Part shown: in pieces, positions 2,849 through 57,630 of the stretch
Layout of the letters: each line of letters opens with the position of its first letter
Numbering within the stretch: position 1 is the stretch's first letter
Source: an uncultured Planctomycetia bacterium
GTDB taxonomy: Bacteria > Omnitrophota > Gorgyraeia > Pluralincolimonadales > Pluralincolimonadaceae
Length of the DNA stretch: 64,000 nt
Direction: 5' to 3'
Assembly: GCA_964650515.1 (NCBI GenBank)
Contig: CAZYUB010000001.1
Span: 1,726 to 65,725, forward strand
Program-made: the position numbers and the translations under genes
The notes under the pieces: generated by a model
The model's database searches: none
Told to the model about the DNA's origin: nothing
The model's input: the letters and a program-made list of their open reading frames with translations, nothing else

Positions 2849-3490
2849 TTATTTAACCGTTTTTTTCCTTAATCCGAGCAGTCCAACAAGGCCTGATCCG
2901 AGTAAAAGAAGGCTTGTCGGCTCGGGAACGGTAAACTGCGTATCGTCAAACCATACTGTGCCGGTGGCGCTTGTGCCGGTCCCGGGAGCAAGCAGGGTCA
3001 GGCGATAGTCGATATACGCCGCGTTGGCAGGCGCTGTCCTCTCGGCCTCCGACCAGGAGCTTAAACTCTGGTACTGCCAATCTCCCGAACCTGAGGTCTG
3101 GTGGACTATGCCTATGCCGCTTCCCAGCTCTTCCTGGCTCGCGTTAAGCCATTTGCACTCCAGGTAGGCCTCTATGTTGCTGAGGTTCTGCCATTTCATC
3201 CATACGCCTCCGTCAACGACATCACCCGGATTTACGGCAAAGACCTGCTTCGCTCCGACCATCTCCCATGAATCGGTCGTAGAACCAGCGGAAATCTTCA
3301 GCGCCTGGCTGCCTCCATGGACTGAATCGGCAGCGTCATAATCGATCGTCCACTGCGGTCCCCAGTTGTAATCAAGCCACGGGCCCTGTCCTGCGCCCTC
3401 AAAGCCGGGATCTCCGATAGCGTTTGCGCACGCAAAAGACGGCGTGGATATGGCCGCCAAAACCGCTAATACTGCAATTAATCCCTTCAT
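2849..3490 (-). CDS. Secreted CBM4_9-like carbohydrate-binding-module protein with PEP-CTERM sorting signal
   Basis: Signal peptide; N(x)GFE motif after the signal, typical of CBM4_9 beta-sandwich starts. C-terminal VPEPTSLLLLGSGLVGLLGLRKK is a PEP motif plus TM helix plus basic tail. Confidence 0.8.
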   Translation of the reverse strand: MKGLIAVLAVLAAISTPSFACANAIGDPGFEGAGQGPWLDYNWGPQWTIDYDAADSVHGGSQALKISAGSTTDSWEMVGAKQVFAVNPGDVVDGGVWMKWQNLSNIEAYLECKWLNASQEELGSGIGIVHQTSGSGDWQYQSLSSWSEAERTAPANAAYIDYRLTLLAPGTGTSATGTVWFDDTQFTVPEPTSLLLLGSGLVGLLGLRKKTVK

Positions 3491-3530
3491 TTGTTCACCC
3501 CCTCTCCTTTTCCTTAGTTTAAAGTCTATT

Positions 3531-3585
3531 TGTAAACGCTTACATATTTACCTAAAAAATAGGGCGCTACACGTAAGCGCTTACA
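3531..3585 (-). promoter_or_regulatory. Twin LacI/cre-type palindromic operators (TGTAAACGCTTACA at 3531..3544; CGTAAGCGCTTACA at 3572..3585)
   Basis: Both are 14-bp near-perfect palindromes with central CG, matching the LacI/CcpA-family operator consensus TGTAAGCGCTTACA. O1 overlaps the predicted TSS and O2 precedes the RBS. Centres are 41 bp apart. Confidence 0.55.
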
Positions 3586-3593
3586 TTACCAGA

Positions 3594-3622
3594 ATAATAC
3601 CACCACCTACATTGATTGTCAA
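3594..3622 (-). promoter_or_regulatory. Sigma70 promoter (TTGACA-N17-TATTAT) of the PEP-CTERM CBM gene 2849..3490
   Basis: Minus-strand TTGACA (plus 3617-3622), 17-nt spacer, TATTAT (plus 3594-3599). Preceded by the AT-rich UP-like element AAAATTAGCAAAATAATAATC shared with other promoters in the island. Confidence 0.55.
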
Positions 3623-3627
3623 GATTA

Positions 3628-3984
3628 TTATTTTGCTAATTTTGAGGAATAAATGAGAGTATTTACGATAGCTATCGCGACAAATAACGTCAATGACCCG
3701 CCGCCGAAGAAGACGATGACCATAGGGTGCGTATCGTCGCGTACCGGAATGAAAAAACACGCCACCGCCGTGACCAATACCGGGACGGACCATATTACCA
3801 TCTGTCGCCCGCCGTATGCGTTTATCTCATACCACAATTCGGGCGACTTAAACGCTTTTGGCAGCCTGAACCCGTACCAGTAATTCATCGGTATCTTGCG
3901 CTTGGCGAGAGGGACTCCCAAAACGATAAACAGCAACCCCATTACCAGGTTTATTGTGATGAATGTCACCTGCGCGTCTGTCAT
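3628..3984 (-). CDS. SdpI/YhfL-family small membrane protein
   Basis: PMNYWYGFRLPKAFKSPELW matches the SdpI-family PxNxxxGxR motif and the protein has 3-4 TM helices. Start set at the internal ATG (3984) with AAGAGG RBS; the track ORF extends to 4032. Confidence 0.5.
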   Translation of the reverse strand: MTDAQVTFITINLVMGLLFIVLGVPLAKRKIPMNYWYGFRLPKAFKSPELWYEINAYGGRQMVIWSVPVLVTAVACFFIPVRDDTHPMVIVFFGGGSLTLFVAIAIVNTLIYSSKLAK

Positions 3985-4112: not shown

Positions 4113-4739
4113 TTATGACCTTTTCCTTAAGCCGAGGAGTCCGACAAGCCCTGAGCCGAGAAGGAGCAGGCTAGCGGGCTCGGGTACAGGCGCCGTATCA
4201 AGGTAAGCATCATCAAAATAAGCGACGCCTGTGCCGCCGTCTACGGTCTGGTTCACGAAGAAAGCCAGGGAAGCGTATGACGCGGTGACCGGTGCGGCTC
4301 CGCTTATATTAAGGGCTGTCCAGTCGTGCGTACCGGTAAGTACCGGGGACGCGCCGGCCGTGCCGACCCATCCGCCCGACGCGTTGAACCAGTCGATCTT
4401 CACGAAGGCCTCTTCGTTGACGAGAGCGTTGGTCTTCGCAAATATGGTCCCGTAATATGTCGTACCGGGCGTAACGGCCGCCATCGTATTGCTGTACATG
4501 AAATAATCGTCGCCGGTGCCGGATGCGCTGTTCGACGTTATCTTCGTCGATTGCGCGCCGGTCCTTGCGGCTTCGGTGCTGCCGTATGTGCCCGTATGCT
4601 GGCTGTTTCCCCAGAGGCCGAGCCACGGGTCCTGGGCCGTATTCTCAAAGCCCGAGTTCGTAAGCATATTAGCGGCTTCCGATATAGAAGCGCTGAACAT
4701 TACTGCTATAGCTAAGGCCAATACTGCGGTAAATTTCAT
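4113..4739 (-). CDS. Secreted CBM4_9-like protein with PEP-CTERM sorting signal
   Basis: Signal peptide, NSGFEN motif, C-terminal VPEPASLLLLGSGLVGLLGLRKRS. Confidence 0.8.
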   Translation of the reverse strand: MKFTAVLALAIAVMFSASISEAANMLTNSGFENTAQDPWLGLWGNSQHTGTYGSTEAARTGAQSTKITSNSASGTGDDYFMYSNTMAAVTPGTTYYGTIFAKTNALVNEEAFVKIDWFNASGGWVGTAGASPVLTGTHDWTALNISGAAPVTASYASLAFFVNQTVDGGTGVAYFDDAYLDTAPVPEPASLLLLGSGLVGLLGLRKRS

Positions 4740-8807: not shown

Positions 8808-10508
8808 TTACGGGGCTTTTTCTAATGTAAGCGGATTAAACTTGTTCTTGGCGAATATGTACCACGAGGCCACGGACACCGTCCCCATATCCGGCCTGCT
8901 CCAGTTATAACCGCCTTCCCTGTTTGCCGTATAAGGTATCGTACGGCCCTTCGCCCCCTTGATATTCCTGTCGACGAGGAAGGCGTCCATCTGGTTGGCG
9001 TAGAAATACCCCCTCTCCCTGTCGCCTTCGGTAATATACGCGCACGCTATATGGCCGGTGCCGTCGAGCCATATATTGTTTACGTTTATATCGGCATGGT
9101 CGAAGAAGCCCATGACTTCCTTTCCGTTCACGTTCAGCGTCTTGCGGTACCTGAGGTCATATTCCGGGATATTCAGCAGGGCCGCCGATCCCCTGCCGTA
9201 TGCGAGGACCCTCCAGGTATAGTTATCCAGCGGAAGCGTGTTGCCTTTCAGCACCGAGTCGAGCCATACGCGTATCTTATCCGCATAGGCGTCCTCCTTG
9301 CAAAGTTTCAACGCGGCATAGCAGTCGATGTTGCCTTCGGGATGCCCGCCGTCCTCGTGGAGCTTCTTGTCCCCGCTCCTCCATCCGTGCTGTATATAAC
9401 CGCCCTTCCCTCCCGGATCGTCCTTATACCATGATATCAGCAGGTCTTTCAGCATCCCCGTGATATCCCTGTATCTCTCCGCCCCGTATTCCTTCTCATA
9501 ATATTTATACGCGATAAGCAGCCATGCCATGTCGCCCATCCAGCGGTCCGCCTTGCCGGGGTTATGGTATGCAGAGAGGTTCCCCTCGTTCCTGAGGTTG
9601 ACGTACTGGAAGAAACCTCTTGCCTCGCCCTTATAAAAGAAGTTCTGGTATGACGGGCACCTGTTCTTTACGACCGTGGACTCCGCGAAGAAATCGAGTA
9701 TACGTTCGGCTCTTTCTTTTTCTCCCTTCACGATGAACGCCATTGCCACAAGGGCGTTGTTGAAAGTATGGGCCTGGTTGTCTTCGGCCGTGGGCAGAAG
9801 TTGTTTTTCCGGAGAAAAATTATCCTGGCACAATTTGAGCCATTCCAATACGAGCGGGTCCTCGGGTATAAGCTCCGCGGCCCTTCTCTGTTTGAAACCT
9901 ATGCCTTTAAGCTCCCTGTCCGGGTCGAGCACCGGGCCCACGACCGAGAATGAGGCCGGCAGCCCCGGCTTGTCCAACCCTATCTCGTCCAGGTCCACCG
10001 TGCCTTTTCCTTTTCCGGAGAAAGCGATCTCGAGGTTGGCGAGTTTATCGAACTTATCATCCCCGCCCCACCCGTATTCAAGGTTATTCCTGTATACCAC
10101 GACCTGCGTCCAATCCGTGTATTTGCCCCTCAAAGGGAATTTCCTGAAGAATACGGAACCGTCCGCGTCGACCAGCTTGATCTCCATGTCCGAAGACGAA
10201 TCGGACTTGATCAGGAACGTCAAAGGGACATCCTCCGGCATCTTCTCCGTCATCTTCCTGCGCATAAGCACCCAGCCGTAATCGCCCCTGAGCTCATATA
10301 CCGCCCGGATACCGTCGTCCGGCTTCTCCGGTATGGGGGATATCTCTATCGTGCTCTTACCGTCCATATCGGCCTTCCATTGGCTAATGTCGTCCCAGCT
10401 CGCCTTAATGGGGGGTTGGGGCTGCTGCCCGGGTTTTTGCGCTTGCTCATACTCCTTGCAGCCGGATATTAACAGCAGGAACGCCGCCAGGCAGACAACC
10501 TTTTTCAT
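8808..10508 (-). CDS. Lipoprotein: N-terminal CBM/CIA30-like beta-sandwich plus C-terminal (alpha/alpha)6 six-hairpin glycosidase-like domain
   Basis: Lipobox LLISGC. C-terminal half (…NTFNNALVAMAFIV…WYIFAKNKFNP) is homologous to the N-terminal half of the 14086..15843 protein, and its N-terminal beta-rich domain to the other's C-terminus. Fold assignment is by pattern only. Confidence 0.45.
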   Translation of the reverse strand: MKKVVCLAAFLLLISGCKEYEQAQKPGQQPQPPIKASWDDISQWKADMDGKSTIEISPIPEKPDDGIRAVYELRGDYGWVLMRRKMTEKMPEDVPLTFLIKSDSSSDMEIKLVDADGSVFFRKFPLRGKYTDWTQVVVYRNNLEYGWGGDDKFDKLANLEIAFSGKGKGTVDLDEIGLDKPGLPASFSVVGPVLDPDRELKGIGFKQRRAAELIPEDPLVLEWLKLCQDNFSPEKQLLPTAEDNQAHTFNNALVAMAFIVKGEKERAERILDFFAESTVVKNRCPSYQNFFYKGEARGFFQYVNLRNEGNLSAYHNPGKADRWMGDMAWLLIAYKYYEKEYGAERYRDITGMLKDLLISWYKDDPGGKGGYIQHGWRSGDKKLHEDGGHPEGNIDCYAALKLCKEDAYADKIRVWLDSVLKGNTLPLDNYTWRVLAYGRGSAALLNIPEYDLRYRKTLNVNGKEVMGFFDHADINVNNIWLDGTGHIACAYITEGDRERGYFYANQMDAFLVDRNIKGAKGRTIPYTANREGGYNWSRPDMGTVSVASWYIFAKNKFNPLTLEKAP

Positions 10509-11995: not shown

Positions 11996-12012
11996 ATCGA
12001 AACGTGTTTATT
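11996..12012 (-). promoter_or_regulatory. ACACGTGT-type box (ATCGAAACGTGTTTATT) just upstream of the RBS of gene 11980
   Basis: Degenerate copy of the TTCGACACGTGTTTAA box, 17 nt before the start codon. Confidence 0.4.
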
Positions 12013-12084: not shown

Positions 12085-12139
12085 TTCGACACGTGTTTAA
12101 GAGTGCCTATAATATACATTAAGAAAGTAAAAGTGTCAA
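12085..12139 (-). promoter_or_regulatory. Sigma70 promoter (TTGACA-N17-TATATT) with a TTAAACACGTGTCGAA operator box at +4..+20
   Basis: Minus-strand -35 is plus 12134-12139 and -10 is plus 12111-12116. The imperfect palindrome around CACGTG at 12085..12100 lies immediately downstream. It carries the same UP-like upstream element as the other island promoters. Confidence 0.5.
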
Positions 12140-12185
12140 GAGAATTAAATTGCTTATTTATAGTTCTTTATTGCTCTATATGAGA

Positions 12186-12260: not shown

Positions 12261-12887
12261 CTACTTCCTGGAGCTCTTCTTTCCTATTCCGAAAATACCG
12301 ATCAGGCCTGAGCCGAGAAGCAATAAGCTTGCCGGTTCCGGTATCGGCTGTGTATCTACCATCAGGTCGTCGAATATACCGCGGCCGTCTCCAGAACCGC
12401 TGTTATTGACTTCCCATACCAGAGTTACATGGTCGATACCGACACCATAGCTCGACGGCGTAACAATGGCTGTCTTGTCGTTCCATACGTTGTCTGTCAG
12501 GTTGGCGCCGGTCAAATTGCCGGTCGTCCAGGTCCCAACGATGTTGTTGGCGGCATTCTTGAATTCTGCCCTTATCGAGGCATACCCGCCGTTCCTGAGC
12601 GATTCGTTTCCCGCGACGTCATCATAGATGTAGCCGCCGATCCTCACCGACGCATTTGCGTCCGTGATAGCTGCGTCCTGCCATGCTGATGTCGCCCACC
12701 AACCTGCTGCGGAATAATTGCCCGTACGGCCCCAGCTGTTCATTGCCGTATTGGCGCTGTTCCACTGTCCCCAGTTACTGAAACTCCCCGTCTCAAATCC
12801 AGCGTTGCTGAGAAGATTAGCGGCATCCGCGTGAACCGGAATTACGAGAGCTGCTGCAAACAGAAGCACTGCAAACAACTTTCCCAT
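12261..12887 (-). CDS. Secreted CBM4_9-like protein with PEP-CTERM sorting signal
   Basis: Start placed at the internal ATG with AAAGGAGGA RBS (the track ORF extends to 12932). Signal peptide, NLLSNAGFETGSFSNW motif, C-terminal PIPEPASLLLLGSGLIGIFGIGKKSSRK. Confidence 0.8.
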   Translation of the reverse strand: MGKLFAVLLFAAALVIPVHADAANLLSNAGFETGSFSNWGQWNSANTAMNSWGRTGNYSAAGWWATSAWQDAAITDANASVRIGGYIYDDVAGNESLRNGGYASIRAEFKNAANNIVGTWTTGNLTGANLTDNVWNDKTAIVTPSSYGVGIDHVTLVWEVNNSGSGDGRGIFDDLMVDTQPIPEPASLLLLGSGLIGIFGIGKKSSRK

Positions 12888-12908
12888 AACTTTTCCTCCT
12901 TTCTTCAA

Positions 12909-12923
12909 TTCGACACGTGTTGA
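12909..12923 (-). promoter_or_regulatory. ACACGTGTCGAA box, RBS-proximal copy
   Basis: Minus-strand AACACGTGTCGAA about 25 nt upstream of the start codon of gene 12261..12887. Confidence 0.45.
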
Positions 12924-12977
12924 GTTATTCATTACAATAATCCCTTGCCGGAACTAATAGGGATTTATTTAGAACGA

Positions 12978-13032
12978 TTCGACACGTGTTTAATTGTTAA
13001 TTTATTATGCATTAAGTAAGTGTTCATGTCAA
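12978..13032 (-). promoter_or_regulatory. Sigma70 promoter (TTGACA-N18-ATAATA) with a TTAAACACGTGTCGAA box at +3..+18
   Basis: The -35 is plus 13027-13032, the -10 is plus 13003-13008 and the box is 12978..12993. A hairpin TCCCT…AGGGA at 12941-12970 lies between the two box copies. Confidence 0.5.
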
Positions 13033-13063
13033 GATTAATATATTGCTTTTTTTTAGGACTAAT

Positions 13064-14086
13064 TCAGGAGGGCTTGACGGACTCTCTGCGAATGTATTCC
13101 GGAGTGAAAATTACCGTATCGTTCTCTATCTTTTTTCCCGATACTATATCCAATAACATCTGCGCGGCGGTCTTGCCAATCTCGACCAGCGGAAGCCTCA
13201 TGGAACTCAATGTCGGAGATCCCGGCGGAAAAGGGAACATGTCGTTGAAACCTATTACCGAAATATGCTCGGGGACCGAAAGGCCGTCGTCACGTATCCT
13301 TCTTATCGCGGCAAGCGCCATGACGTCGTCCGAAGCCACTATGCCGGTGATCCTCGGCTCCTGCTTCAACAGGATACCGGTAGCTTCGTATGCTTTTTCG
13401 TAGATAAACAGCCCTTCGGCCACAAGGTTTTCGTCGAATCCCGCGCCCGCTTCGGATAACGCCTTTTTGTATCCCGCAAGCCTGTCCTGGTCGAGCTGGA
13501 ACCTTAACGCGCCGCTGAGGAACGCTATCCTTTTATGGCCGGTGTCGAGCAATTCCTTCGTCGCCCTGAAAAGGCCTTCCTTGTTATCTATCAGGACCTT
13601 GGGTATCTTCGCCTCCTTTATGTACCTGTTCACGAGCACTACCGGGAACTTCTTTTCGAAAAGCGTCATCACATCCTTCTCGAGGGCTTCTTCGACGAGT
13701 ATGCACATGCCGTCGACCCTTTTTTCTTCGAAGGCCTTCATGTAATACGGGGAAAGCGGTTCTTCTTTCGGCTTTATCGCACGGGTCAACTGGAAATAAT
13801 AACCGTTCTTCTCCAGCACTCCGGCAATGCCGCTGACTACGTGGCTGAAATACGAATAATATATGTCCTCGAAATCTTTTACCACTACGGCGATGTTGAA
13901 TGTCTTCCTGCTGACAAGGCTGCGGGCTATCACGTTAGGCGTGAAATCAAGGTCCGCGACCACCTTGCTGACACGCTCCTGCGTCTTCTTGCCCACCTTC
14001 TGGAGGTCCTTACCGTTTATGACCCTCGAGACGGTGCTTATGGATACTTTCGCTTTTTTGGCTATGTCTTTATATGTATATGCCAT
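13064..14086 (-). CDS. LacI-family transcriptional regulator
   Basis: N-terminal HTH (YKDIAKKAKVSISTVSRVINGK) and periplasmic-binding-fold effector domain. Its ATG overlaps the TAA of the upstream glycosidase-like gene. Confidence 0.85.
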   Translation of the reverse strand: MAYTYKDIAKKAKVSISTVSRVINGKDLQKVGKKTQERVSKVVADLDFTPNVIARSLVSRKTFNIAVVVKDFEDIYYSYFSHVVSGIAGVLEKNGYYFQLTRAIKPKEEPLSPYYMKAFEEKRVDGMCILVEEALEKDVMTLFEKKFPVVLVNRYIKEAKIPKVLIDNKEGLFRATKELLDTGHKRIAFLSGALRFQLDQDRLAGYKKALSEAGAGFDENLVAEGLFIYEKAYEATGILLKQEPRITGIVASDDVMALAAIRRIRDDGLSVPEHISVIGFNDMFPFPPGSPTLSSMRLPLVEIGKTAAQMLLDIVSGKKIENDTVIFTPEYIRRESVKPS

Positions 14087-16587: not shown

Positions 16588-17241
16588 TCAGCTCTTCTTC
16601 CTTCTCCCAAGACCGATAAGCCCAACCAGCCCTGTGCCGAGCAAGAGCATGCTTGCCGGTTCGGGGACGGGCGCAAACGACATATCATCCACCCACAACG
16701 TGCTGTTAGGTGAATACGCACCGCTTGTCGTAAGTGCGACAACGGCGGATACCTTAGCCGTCCCTGCGGGGGCGGCCGCGGCCGCGACAGAAATAGGGTG
16801 CCAGGTGTCTGCTGTTGCCGAGTTGTCGAATAAGGCACTCTCATCTACGCGGATAACGTTGCCAAGCGAGTTATACCATTTTACCTGCAGCTTGGCCGAG
16901 CTGCCGTCCTTAAGCGCATCAGCGGAATTCCACAGGAAATTACCATTCAGTAAGTAGGGGGCACTGAAATCGATCCCTGTAAAGTCCTCGTTGAAATACG
17001 CATAATCGGTGCCGCTTCCGCCCCAGATGACCACCTTCGCCGCCTTGGCGCCGCTCATCGCAACCGAAGAATCATAGAATGAGTCGCCGTTAGCGCCGCC
17101 GCTCCATGTCCACGGGCCATCCTTTATAACAATAGCCGATCCGCCGTTCTCGAAACCCGGATCGCTCAGGAGGTTGGCAGATGCCTGGGATGAAAAAACA
17201 CCGAATACCGCTATCATCAGTATTACCCTGAATATCTTCAT
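16588..17241 (-). CDS. Secreted CBM4_9-like protein with PEP-CTERM sorting signal
   Basis: Start at the internal ATG with GGAGGTG RBS. Signal peptide, NLLSDPGFENGG motif, C-terminal APVPEPASMLLLGTGLVGLIGLGRRKKS. Confidence 0.8.
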   Translation of the reverse strand: MKIFRVILMIAVFGVFSSQASANLLSDPGFENGGSAIVIKDGPWTWSGGANGDSFYDSSVAMSGAKAAKVVIWGGSGTDYAYFNEDFTGIDFSAPYLLNGNFLWNSADALKDGSSAKLQVKWYNSLGNVIRVDESALFDNSATADTWHPISVAAAAAPAGTAKVSAVVALTTSGAYSPNSTLWVDDMSFAPVPEPASMLLLGTGLVGLIGLGRRKKS

Positions 17242-17380
17242 TATTTCACCTCCTTTCATTATTAAGTTAAACGTTTTCCTTTCAAACCTTAAAAAAAGGA
17301 AAACGATTTCCTTTACTTGGAAAGTCTATCATATCCCAGAATAAAGTCAAGATTATTAAATTGTTATTTTGTAGTAATAA

Positions 17381-18031
17381 TTAGAGGTAATCCGGAAGGA
17401 CCTTTACCGCTTCGCGTATGAACTTCCTGCATCTTTCGAGCGCGGCTGTCGTGTCGTTATCCGTTATGGCTGTCCATACCCTTATGGCCGACCCGCCGCT
17501 CTTGCCGCCCTTGAGCTGGTTGATGACGAAATACAACTGCTGCCTGTAGAAATTCTCCGTCATTACATCTCCGGCGGTGTACCAGTCAAGCATCAGCACC
17601 TTGTTCTTCGATATCTGGTAGATCGACTCGTTGGCCGACATTGCCTTCCCCCCTCCAAGGTCGATATCCGCCTTTCCCTGCGTGAGCATCTCGGTGCGGC
17701 CGCTCCCGAGATAGCAATATTCCGGAGGATGGAAACTCTGCCTCTTCTGGTCCGAATATACCACCTGCATCGACACCCTTTCGTTACCAGGCCCGAGGTA
17801 GGTGCGTATCAACACTTTGTCCGTCCCGAGGACCTCGTATACCTGTTTCAGGTATTCTTTGTCCTTGAACTCGACGTTCGTCCCCTTCCACCCGGAGACG
17901 TTCATCGGGAAGGACATCAGCCTTACTTCGCGCGCCGGTGCCCTTTTGATCGACGACATGAAAAATACCGCGGCCGCGCACACGGTGAGCATGGATACGG
18001 CAATTATCGTATTTAGGTCTTTTTTGTCCAC
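17381..18031 (-). CDS. epsI: EpsI-family exosortase-associated protein
   Basis: ~215-aa protein with a single N-terminal TM, overlapping and directly downstream of the exosortase gene. Matches the EpsI (methanolan-locus) family by architecture. Confidence 0.6.
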   Translation of the reverse strand: MDKKDLNTIIAVSMLTVCAAAVFFMSSIKRAPAREVRLMSFPMNVSGWKGTNVEFKDKEYLKQVYEVLGTDKVLIRTYLGPGNERVSMQVVYSDQKRQSFHPPEYCYLGSGRTEMLTQGKADIDLGGGKAMSANESIYQISKNKVLMLDWYTAGDVMTENFYRQQLYFVINQLKGGKSGGSAIRVWTAITDNDTTAALERCRKFIREAVKVLPDYL

Positions 18032-18849
18032 GACAACACTCTCCCTGCTAATATCAATCCCGCTATCGCGAATACATATACAAGGAAACCGAGAAAATCA
18101 TGCGCAAAGGTCCCCGGGGACGCCGCCTTTGCGTCATAAGCGAACGCTATGAGCAAAAGGAGCACGATCCGGATTATATTCGCCCCTAGGGCGATGGGTA
18201 TGGACAGCGCGAATATCACGATCTTCTTGACCGTTGACATCTTGATCAGATAAGCGTAAAGGGCGCCTAAGGCGGTCAGGGCTATCAGCGAACTTAGGCC
18301 GCTGCAGGGGCTGCCTATAGTCAGGAACGTATCCGGCCTCAAGTGCACGATGCTGCCGTCCCTGACGGCCGGGACCCCCATAAGGTTGATCATGAACGTC
18401 GCCGCCTGCGCGGCCATCATCTTCATCTTGAAACTTACGCTTATTATGAAGACCTGCGGCAGCGGGATCATGAACACAAGGAACAGGATCGCGAACGCTA
18501 TCTTCCTCGTTATACCCGAGCCGTAAATGTAAAGCGATAGCCCAAACAACGCAAATATAAGCGTGAACCCGGAGATGAAGTTGATCTCGAAAAAATACGC
18601 GAACAGGTGCAGCAGGAGCGCCGGCAGGAACAGCGCCAAACCGATACCGAGGGGTTTTATTTCCGTGTTCTTTAGCTCGTTCCTTTTCAGCCAGACCAGG
18701 TACGCGAAAACGAAGGGAACGAGGTAACCGTGCGAATAATAGGTGTCGGCTTCTTCAAAGCGCGCCATCATCCAGATGAAAGTCGGCCAGTAGACCGCTA
18801 TCAAAAGAGCTCCGACTATGAAAGGCCCGAACCTGGATATAGTTCTCAT
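18013..18849 (-). CDS. Exosortase (XrtA/EpsH family)
   Basis: 278-aa polytopic membrane protein with ~8 TM helices, sized and organised like exosortases, surrounded by 6 PEP-CTERM substrates and EpsI. Confidence 0.75.
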   Translation of the reverse strand: MRTISRFGPFIVGALLIAVYWPTFIWMMARFEEADTYYSHGYLVPFVFAYLVWLKRNELKNTEIKPLGIGLALFLPALLLHLFAYFFEINFISGFTLIFALFGLSLYIYGSGITRKIAFAILFLVFMIPLPQVFIISVSFKMKMMAAQAATFMINLMGVPAVRDGSIVHLRPDTFLTIGSPCSGLSSLIALTALGALYAYLIKMSTVKKIVIFALSIPIALGANIIRIVLLLLIAFAYDAKAASPGTFAHDFLGFLVYVFAIAGLILAGRVLSWTKKT

Positions 18850-53960: not shown

Positions 53961-53976
53961 TGTTCCACGTGGAACA
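53961..53976. promoter_or_regulatory. parS centromere-like site (TGTTCCACGTGGAACA), abutting the parA start codon
   Basis: Perfect 16-bp palindrome differing from the parS consensus TGTTTCACGTGAAACA only by a symmetric C/G pair. ParAB are encoded adjacent. Confidence 0.7.
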
Positions 53977-55965: not shown

Positions 55966-57630
55966 TTACTCCGAATGTTCCACGTGGAACATTTCCTTCT
56001 TGAGGAACAACTCCTGCTCGACAACGGTCAATATGGTGTTCGTCAACCAGTACATTACCAGGCCCGAGGGGAGATTATAGAACAGGAACCCGAACAGGAC
56101 CGGCATCATTACGCCCATCATCTTTTGCTGTTGGGCCATCTGGTCGTTTTGCGATGATGCAGGCGGAGCAGATAGCTTCTGTTGGAAGAACATTGCTACC
56201 GCCATTAACAATGGTAATATATTCAAATCATTGCCTACGAATGGGATAGATGCTTTAAATGTTATGAGCCTATCGGGCTGGGAGAGGTCTTTCATCCACA
56301 GGAAAGGCGCTCCCCTGAGCTCCGGAGATCTCATGAGCACCTGGTATAGCGCGAAGAAGACGGGCATCTGCAGCAGCATCGGAAGGCACCCGCCCATGGG
56401 ATTTATCTTATATTTCTTGTACATCTCCATGATCTCTTTGTTCATCTTCTGGGGATTATCTTTATTCGCCTTACGCAGTGCTTCTATCCTTGGCTGGAGG
56501 GCCTGCATCTGCTTCATGGCTTTTATCCCTTTAAAGGTAAGGGGGAAGAGCAGGATGTTTATGAAGACCGTCAGCGCTATTATCGCGAGGCCCCAGTTGT
56601 TCACGACTCCGTTAAAGAACTTCAGGACAACAAACAGGAGCTTTCCGATGCTTCCGGTAAATCCGAGATAGAGCGAGTTTTCCATGCCCATCTTGAGCGA
56701 GGCAACTGCGTCATAATCGTTGGGCCCCGCATAAAGGATAAAATTATTCGTCGCCGAGGCATTCGGACCTACGGTGAACTCGGCTGATCCTATCTTTGTT
56801 TGTATGTTATTGTCCTGCAACTTGTTAGAAACTATTTTGACAAAAGCCGCGGGCGGCTTTGTGATGACGGAGAAGTAGCGGTTCTTTAGCGAAACCCAGT
56901 TTACCTGCCTGCCTTCCCAGACCGTCTCGGAGTTCGCTTTTATACCCTTTTTATTGGTATTGGCGACCTTTCCGTCTATGTCCCGGACGACCTCGACATA
57001 CATCTCATCCTGTTTTGAGAGAGGGTCGATGCCGCTGCTGGTTATAATGGAATATTTGAATGGGTGCGAGCGGTTTGAGCCGTTTGTTATCGTCTGTTTC
57101 AGTTCGATAGTATACTTGCCAGGACGGAATATATACTCTTTCTCAAGCAGCATGCCGTCGGGTGACTTTGCGGTAAAAACAGCCCTGTCCTTGCCGGCGG
57201 AATAGGCGAACTTCGCTCTGTCCAGCTCTCCGGAGAGGCCTGAGGTATAAAAGATAGAGTCCGACGCGCCGGGAGTGTCGGCCAGAATTATCGGGGAACC
57301 CTTTGAATCATGGAATTTTTTAAGCGTTATCCTCTTTATGGCGCCGAACGCTTCCGCGAATGCGATCTTATATTCGTCCGTCTCAAAAATAACGGTCTTC
57401 TCGTCGACAAATTGGGCTGCGACATCAGCGACAACGGTCTTCTCTGCCGTTGTGGCCTCCTCTTTTACGGCCCCTTTTGGCGCCGGCGCGACGGCCGCAG
57501 GCGCGACAACGGGCTGCTGTTTCGGTTGTGGTTTCAGCCCCGGAAAAAATTTGCCCAGGATCATAGGAGTGAAGATGACAATGAACATCGATATTACTAT
57601 TGCGAACAGGGCTCTCTTTTCAGTATTCAT
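55966..57630 (-). CDS. yidC: Membrane protein insertase YidC
   Basis: Large periplasmic domain plus the conserved C-terminal 5-TM region (…KINPMGGCLPMLLQMPVFFALY…). Confidence 0.9.
   Translation of the reverse strand: MNTEKRALFAIVISMFIVIFTPMILGKFFPGLKPQPKQQPVVAPAAVAPAPKGAVKEEATTAEKTVVADVAAQFVDEKTVIFETDEYKIAFAEAFGAIKRITLKKFHDSKGSPIILADTPGASDSIFYTSGLSGELDRAKFAYSAGKDRAVFTAKSPDGMLLEKEYIFRPGKYTIELKQTITNGSNRSHPFKYSIITSSGIDPLSKQDEMYVEVVRDIDGKVANTNKKGIKANSETVWEGRQVNWVSLKNRYFSVITKPPAAFVKIVSNKLQDNNIQTKIGSAEFTVGPNASATNNFILYAGPNDYDAVASLKMGMENSLYLGFTGSIGKLLFVVLKFFNGVVNNWGLAIIALTVFINILLFPLTFKGIKAMKQMQALQPRIEALRKANKDNPQKMNKEIMEMYKKYKINPMGGCLPMLLQMPVFFALYQVLMRSPELRGAPFLWMKDLSQPDRLITFKASIPFVGNDLNILPLLMAVAMFFQQKLSAPPASSQNDQMAQQQKMMGVMMPVLFGFLFYNLPSGLVMYWLTNTILTVVEQELFLKKEMFHVEHSE
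55974..55993. promoter_or_regulatory. parS site (20-bp perfect palindrome AATGTTCCACGTGGAACATT) inside the yidC 3' end
   Basis: Contains the same TGTTCCACGTGGAACA core as the site at 53961. It encodes the YidC C-terminal residues MFHVEH and lies ~25 nt upstream of the jag_N start. Confidence 0.7.

Follow-up and report, generated by a model that had tools for sequence, protein, structure and literature searches.

The 64,000 bp stretch of contig CAZYUB010000001.1 (GCA_964650515.1) analysed here, referred to below as the window, carries on its minus strand a gene (2849..3490) that is preceded by a promoter and by two short palindromes. These palindromes, O1 and O2, have the features expected of a pair of operators for a LacI/GalR-family repressor and are the subject of this work. 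The host belongs to the Omnitrophota, which are uncultivated and mostly small-genome bacteria. To our knowledge, almost nothing is known of gene regulation in this group or of the role of its many PEP-CTERM proteins. Gene 2849..3490 codes for one of them, a 213 amino acids-long protein with a signal peptide, a carbohydrate-binding module (CBM)-type beta-sandwich and a PEP-CTERM sorting signal. The PEP-CTERM tail was identified by Pfam and the amino-terminus is signal peptide-like. The AlphaFold model is a confident beta-sandwich (pLDDT 84.6) whose best fold matches in the PDB are CBM61, CBM16, CBM22 and CBM4 (E 1e-8 to 1e-5), and homologues are annotated as PEP-CTERM proteins in metagenome-assembled genomes (MAGs) of Candidatus Omnitrophota. 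Exosortases EpsH and EpsI are encoded at 17381..18849. The CBM fold, signal peptide and PEP-CTERM signal agree with a first-pass annotation of this DNA that had considered the target to be a surface CBM protein.

The promoter-O1-O2 unit lies on the minus strand ahead of the gene. The sigma-70-type promoter (3594..3622) is composed of a −35 hexamer TTGACA (3622..3617; written cTTGACA), a spacer of 17 nt and a −10 hexamer TATTAT (3599..3594) extended as TGgTATTAT, giving 11 consensus matches out of 12 in addition to the TG extension. O1 (TGTAAGCGCTTACG; 3585..3572) begins 8 nt downstream of the −10 hexamer and is expected to overlap the predicted transcription start. It ends 81 nt upstream of the initiation codon. 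O2 (TGTAAGCGTTTACA; 3544..3531) is spaced from O1 by 41 bp, either start-to-start or centre-to-centre. The segment that separates them includes a T6 tract (3554..3559) close to the midpoint and the distal arm of a predicted hairpin, H1 (3564..3580), formed between GCGCU, in the right half of O1, and AGCGC located 7 nt downstream. The Shine-Dalgarno (SD) region (GGAGAGGGGG; 3498..3507) is followed by TGAACAA and by the ATG at 3490. The promoter and palindrome sequences and coordinates of the first-pass annotation are correct when read on the minus strand. Its placement of the first operator at +1 also holds, since O1 covers the predicted start, while the second, described as near the ribosome binding site, is found in the leader, ending 40 nt upstream of the ATG and ~23 nt from the SD.

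O1 and O2 are even 14-mer palindromes with a central CG and a single asymmetric position each. Even palindromes of 14–22 bp with a central CG are characteristic of LacI-family operators (PMC4052901), and the G at half-site position 6 pairs with Arg20 of the TVSR recognition helix (PMC2978694). We name class A the sites similar to the palindrome TGTAAGCGCTTACA. All 20 class A operators of the ten orthologous leaders described below have a G at this position (NT-6) in their kept right half, and in all 20 the best-kept half-site is TGTAAGC, which has TA at positions 5-4. The even palindrome, central CG and half-site G lead us to read O1 and O2 as operators of LacI/GalR-family form, as proposed in the first-pass annotation. 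Their position upstream of the ATG, behind a near-consensus promoter, and their footprint across orthologues agree with this reading. Operators of the GalR/GalS/CcpA type, whose regulators belong to the Ala16-TVSR class, are the closest in form: they are even palindromes of 14–16 bp (TGTAAnCGnTTACA) with a central CG, whose half-sites have the G at position 6 and TA at 5-4, and they lie at the promoter or immediately after it. The present case differs from those by its Omnitrophota host, by a target that is an exosortase-sorted surface CBM protein instead of a catabolic operon, and by a local LacI that belongs to another recognition class (see below).

Sites of this kind are rare in the window. 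Only O1 and O2 have at most one mismatch to TGTAAGCGCTTACA in the 64 kb (0.01 expected), and none of 100 shuffled sequences contained two such sites. Allowing up to three mismatches added one site, found within a coding region. A position weight matrix (PWM) built from 14 orthologous sites and scanned over the window and related loci (~150 kb) revealed no further class A site above the typical shuffle maximum; the next best scores (10–14 bits) are no better than the usual best of shuffled sequence.

Ten distinct orthologous leaders were compared, all from Omnitrophota metagenomes (the window, L002, L099, L124, L004, L012, L006, L073, L008 and L011). The identity of their gene products ranges from 96% down to 56–63%. 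Promoter, O1 and O2 are retained in the ten leaders while the surrounding sequence diverges. Pairwise identity is 1.0 at the −35 (cTTGACA is invariant), 0.70 at the −10, 0.89 in O1, 0.87 in O2 and 0.91 from the SD to the ATG; it is 0.47 in the promoter spacer, 0.49 between the −10 and O1, 0.54 between the two operators and 0.46 between O2 and the SD. O1 starts 6–9 nt past the −10 hexamer in every leader. Five leaders have O1 and O2 centred 41 bp apart and the other five 42 bp, or 3.9–4.0 helical turns, confirming the four turns of the first-pass annotation. Two protein-sized sites with a constrained spacing represent a clear phylogenetic footprint.

Approximately 20% of the LacI-regulated operons carry more than one site, with spacings that peak at multiples of the helical repeat (Ravcheev et al. 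2014). In the tandem sites of that study (e.g., RafR, ScrR), as for O1 and O2, several sites serve one promoter, and they were interpreted as two dimers binding cooperatively. The peaks are at 13, 22 and 32 bp whereas O1 and O2 are 41–42 bp apart with a T-tract at their midpoint. An integral number of helical turns, kept despite a diverging spacer sequence, makes O1/O2 an in-phase pair. A similar geometry is found in Bacillus subtilis AraR, whose in-phase pairs ORA1-ORA2 and ORE1-ORE2, spaced by 42/43 bp, sustain cooperative binding with a small loop and tight repression (PMC3592433). AraR has a LacI/GalR-type effector domain. It differs by its GntR-type DNA-binding domain and operator (ATTTGTACGTACAAAT). 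In the lac system the auxiliary operators of the O1-O3 and O1-O2 loops raise the local repressor concentration, but those loops depend on a repressor tetramer and, as tested in vivo, span 49.5–59.5 bp or more. The 41 bp separating O1 from O2 are below the shortest of those loops, so that side-by-side cooperativity appears likelier than a classical loop, which is doubtful at this distance; AraR-type cooperative binding on the same helix face is the better analogy.

The paired TGTAAGCGCTTACA pattern was also found in at least 120 loci of public metagenomes. These matches come from many unrelated bacteria, showing that the paired class A architecture is common. Among the matches listed, the spacing histogram has no clean helical periodicity; it is confounded by redundancy and by double counting of palindromes, and was not used. 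In the same set of matches, paired class A sites have at least nine distinct genes of the LacI family within 400 bp. Eight of the nine code for a protein with alanine at position 16 (residues 15/16 are VA, VA, IA, IA, TA, TA, LA and NA), and the only gene without Ala16 adjoins a poor site.

The single LacI-family gene of the 64 kb is found at 13064..14086 (minus strand). Its product has the Pfam LacI helix-turn-helix (HTH) and Peripla_BP_1/3 domains, confirming the LacI-family regulator of the first-pass annotation, which described its operon partners as two glycosidase-like proteins; these are 603 and 219 amino acids-long and have no match in Pfam, NCBIfam or the PDB sequences. The same annotation assigned to this LacI the control of O1 and O2. 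This assignment is probably wrong, a conclusion based on the mismatch between its recognition residues and the TA half-sites, on its association with another operator class, and on the lack of linkage between its orthologue and class A in MAG GCA_030695925.1.

The first argument comes from the recognition code of TVSR-type regulators, in which residues 15 and 16 specify operator positions 5 and 4 (Camas et al. 2010, PMC2978694). According to Table S1 of that work, I-S regulators read AA (16 sites) or CA (8 sites) and I-T regulators read AA, while TA is read by the Ala16 classes V-A (67), I-A (32) and T-A (29). The recognition helix of LacI 13064..14086 is VS-IS-TVSR (Ile15-Ser16), predicting AA or CA instead of the TA found in class A. 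The HTH register was oriented with CcpA, GalR and RbsR sequences, of which no other use was made. Among the 36 orthologues of this LacI, the I-S or I-T signature is present in 33 of the 35 with a readable HTH, the two others being I-A and P-T. Both the published code and the eight of nine neighbours of class A pairs mentioned above thus associate TA half-sites with Ala16.

The second argument is the presence beside this LacI orthogroup, in six lineages, of a different palindrome that we name class C (forms AGGAAAACGTTTTCCT, GGAAAnCGnTTTCC and AGGAAAnCGnTTTCCT). In the window, a class C pair (AGGAAATCGTTTTCCT, 17312..17297, and AGGAAAACGTTTAACT, 17280..17265; minus strand) is positioned downstream of the promoter 17350..17323 and precedes the PEP-CTERM gene 16588..17259, the head of a gene series that ends in the LacI gene. 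Class C is also found in L013 (6778-6826; LacI orthologue with 98% identity), as a pair in L143 (4520-4594; 62%), and in L142 (5336-5351; 51%) as a single site heading a CBM30-GH2-like-LacI operon. L015 (1333-1407, 3640-3656; 60%) has a PEP-CTERM gene preceded by a pair, and one site between the LacI promoter and ATG, and L141 (Candidatus Kappaea; 4344-4402, 9971-9986; 59%) has a pair and, 15 nt ahead of the LacI ATG, a further site. The sites that precede LacI's own ATG in L015 and L141 are in an autoregulatory position, the usual arrangement in this family, whose regulators are mostly local and autoregulated in 72% of the cases (PMC4052901). The class C half-site GGAAAAC has a G at position 6 and AA at positions 5/4, as predicted for I-S and I-T proteins; it differs from class A also at NT-2, which is A in class C and G in class A. 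The constant association with the orthogroup, the fit of the half-site to I-S and the autoregulatory positions together suggest that LacI 13064..14086 probably binds class C and not O1/O2. No class A site was found near the LacI gene in any of the six lineages (window, L013, L015, L141, L142 and L143), including the autoregulatory region of operon 13064..14086 in the window, nor are such sites present in the region adjacent to the LacI gene of L014. Finally, in MAG GCA_030695925.1 the class A sites (L006, contig 24) and the LacI gene with its class C pair (L143, contig 3) are unlinked.

We consider it reasonably probable that O1 and O2 are an operator pair bound cooperatively by a LacI/GalR-family repressor, and that this repressor is an unlinked Ala16 protein distinct from LacI 13064..14086. 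A strong, constitutive-type promoter would drive transcription of gene 2849..3490. O1 at +1 sits over the predicted transcription start, and O2, four helical turns downstream (~+42), would face the same side of the helix. Both sites could be occupied cooperatively by a pair of repressor dimers, or by a single tetramer, possibly assisted by a bend of the T-tract at their midpoint, and the bound repressor would block initiation or early elongation. A sugar effector would release it, allowing the CBM lectin to be displayed through the exosortase pathway. The repressor itself would come from a different LacI-family gene, outside the window, whose product has Ala at position 16.

Several observations weigh against this interpretation. 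No Ala16 repressor is encoded in the 64-kb window, and a search for LacI homologues with more than 50% identity returned exclusively the I-S/I-T orthogroup, without a separate Ala16 repressor. The recognition code is a statistical one and admits exceptions. Some class A half-sites (TGAAAGC, AGAAAGC) have AA at NT5-4 and are, in principle, readable by an I-S protein. The single I-A member of the orthogroup (P0049, 75% identical, on a 1.8-kb contig) indicates that the Ser/Ala position can flip, a possible specificity switch towards TA half-sites. LacI 13064..14086 is also syntenic with the target gene, at a distance of 6–10 kb, in the closest relatives. The short O1-O2 distance discussed above stands against the loop form of the proposal, and the conserved hairpin and U-run between the operators hint at an additional layer of control at the RNA level.

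Some of these points would be accommodated if LacI 13064..14086 were itself the protein that binds O1 and O2, with or without class C, repressing the CBM gene within a local regulon. Its gene shares a PEP-CTERM/CBM cluster with the target (in the window, L002/L013 and the P0006 contig), no other LacI-family gene competes for the role in the 64 kb, and co-occurrence is intact in the genome holding L006, which has a LacI orthologue. AA-type half-sites in class A would also suit it. We regard this alternative as unlikely: the half-site that is best kept is the TA-type TGTAAGC, which I-S is not predicted to read, NT-2 distinguishes the two operator classes, the orthogroup is accompanied by class C even in front of its own gene, and it is Ala16 regulators that adjoin class A pairs in eight of the nine listed cases.

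A second alternative is that the leader acts mainly as RNA, H1 and the following U-run forming an attenuator or a 5′ stabilizing hairpin, or O1 RNA pairing with O2 RNA in an alternative structure. H1 was flagged as terminator-like, overlaps O1 and is predicted in the ten leaders with energies from −4.5 to −10 kcal/mol, its stem variants retaining the pairing (GCGCTTT/AAAGCGC in L124, ACGCT/AGCGT in L006). Between O2 and the SD, a small second hairpin (3512-3525), with a stem of 3 bp in the window, reads CCUU/AAGG in some clades and CCGA/UCGG in others. The class C leaders of L015 and L143 have a clearer hairpin (GGGCUUU/AAAGCCC) followed by a U-run between their operators. In the window clade the O1:O2 RNA pairing reaches ~−25 kcal/mol; two similar palindromes pair automatically, however, so that this value is trivial. 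As leader terminators, the structures combine a stem of 5–7 bp (10 of 10 leaders) and a U-run (8 of 10; it is broken in the other two) with few compensatory variants and weak energies. RNAalifold gives a weak consensus (−5.95 kcal/mol) that pairs only O1 with O2, through base pairs that never vary, and the leader has no Rfam match better than E = 7. The motif matched by the palindromes is a well-known binding site for proteins, and pairs of the same kind elsewhere adjoin genes of Ala16 LacI proteins. A leader acting mainly as RNA is thus quite unlikely, and an added attenuator or 5′ stabilizing hairpin at the leader is a possibility compatible with operator control.

Two roles can be considered for the T-tract: it may bend the DNA where a small loop has its apex, or serve as the U-run of a leader terminator. 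DNA bending also explains the A/T tracts between the sites. The T5-7 run is positioned within ~2 bp of the O1-O2 midpoint in eight of the ten class A leaders and is degenerate in L099 and L124. Among the metagenome matches listed, 33 of 82 non-redundant class A pair spacers from unrelated contigs (40%) contain A/T tracts of at least 5 nt, against 17% of the flanking windows and 18% of the shuffled spacers taken as controls (p ~1e-6). This enrichment favours a structural role in DNA, as a bend between cooperating dimers, and suggests that sequence-directed bending is a common part of class A operator pairs. Engineered A-tract bends between lac operators serve to study LacI loops (PMC3378866).

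The remaining alternative, raised in the first-pass annotation, that a global catabolite regulator of the CcpA type acts on O1 and O2 as cre-like sites, in place of a dedicated sugar switch, is very unlikely: the sites do fit the cre-type ideal palindrome, an unlinked regulator is typical of global regulators and fewer than half of the global LacI regulators are autoregulated (PMC4052901), but the absence of other above-chance sites from both the 64 kb and the related loci (~150 kb), an Omnitrophota and not Firmicute host, the low score of the only LacI of the window in the CcpA model (TIGR01481; 196 bits against a cut-off of 442, this protein being below every NCBIfam equivalog cut-off) and the strictly paired, fixed-spacing layout, typical of dedicated tight repression, all argue against it.

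The leader of gene 2849..3490 is not the only one of its kind in the gene cluster. Sites of a third class, B (TAAACACGTGTCGAA), form two pairs on the minus strand (12992..12978 and 12923..12909; 12099..12085 and 12010..11996) downstream of promoters 13032..13004 and 12139..12111, respectively, in the leaders of two further cluster genes. Class B is conserved in L002, L006 (5862-5911), L014 (1560-1662), L063 and L124. It has a kept asymmetry and lacks the G at half-site position 6. Its binder is probably not a TVSR-type LacI. The predicted open reading frame (ORF) 12261..12932 begins upstream of the second class B site and its L002 orthologue was called with 208 amino acids; both observations place its true start probably ~45 nt further downstream.

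The three operator classes thus coexist in one cluster with the same promoter-O1-T-tract-O2 layout. Its promoters, which precede the PEP-CTERM genes and their neighbours, feature an A-rich AGCAA stretch located 10–20 nt upstream of tcTTGACA, followed by 17 nt, TAnAnT, an O1 at ~+1, the T-run and O2. The AGCAA stretches lie upstream of each −35 on the minus strand (3623-3645, 13033-13060, 12140-12165 and 17351-17375), and the element is also present in L006, L015 and L141. It resembles an UP-element common to the promoters, or the trace of a duplicated promoter cassette, and the cluster has the appearance of a set of paralogous promoter-leader cassettes with different operators. A more speculative idea, on balance doubtful, is that the cassettes constitute a switchboard where operators of class A, B or C let differing glycan signals switch on different exosortase-sorted lectins, to which the hairpin and T-tract might add a leader attenuator. 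We know of no description of operator repression combined with a leader attenuator for LacI-family control.

The locus provides a clean, conserved and testable cis-regulatory unit with a specific prediction on the class of its regulator (Ala16 and not the neighbouring I-S protein). It ties exosortase-sorted surface CBM proteins to sugar-type repressors, a link that suggests a function of these proteins as glycan-responsive adhesins or capture proteins. The mechanism itself, a paired in-phase LacI-type operator, would be a textbook, ordinary switch. The interest of the analysis, otherwise modest, resides in the annotation and in the correction of a regulator-target assignment that was plausible but is probably wrong.

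The genes found around LacI orthologues give some indication on possible ligands. Their clusters contain weak CBM30, CBM_11 and GH2/GH127-like matches as well as GH94 genes, and genes of GH94, GH2-like and GH35/42 type are found with the LacI orthologues. In L009 (7511-14464; GCA_964460615.1) a homologue of the 213 amino acids-long protein (53% identity) that lacks the PEP-CTERM tail is encoded between genes for a GH94 phosphorylase and a sugar ABC transporter. This context hints that the protein family may bind beta-glucan or cellodextrin-type ligands. From the GH94, GH2-like and GH35/42 neighbours and the L009 context we infer that beta-linked oligosaccharides might be the relevant signals.

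Additional LacI-type proteins were encountered in the loci compared. Second LacI paralogues with 29% identity and a recognition helix SPAAVSK are encoded near the LacI orthologue in L015 (13362-14408) and L142 (11225-12286). They were considered as O1/O2 binders and rejected, being P-A proteins with AVSK and having no class A site nearby. The palindrome AGTAAAACATTTTACT is found upstream of the L142 paralogue. A short low-GC, phage-like contig (L043; Ga0265295_1080623, 1727 bp) codes for a 64 amino acids-long stand-alone LacI-type HTH protein together with an HNH endonuclease. The HTH is of the I-A, TVSR type and has no effector domain. In this contig, TGTAAGCGCTTACA triplets are positioned upstream of each of several consensus promoters.

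Besides the features already described, the window holds several paralogous PEP-CTERM/CBM_4_9-like genes, thrS-infC and a dnaA/parAB origin region. A perfect palindrome of 16 bp, TGTTCCACGTGGAACA, is found twice (53961-53976 and 55976-55991), flanking gidA and adjoining parA/parB, yidC, rnpA and dnaA/dnaN. The two copies look like parS sites, in which case the window would span the chromosomal origin region.

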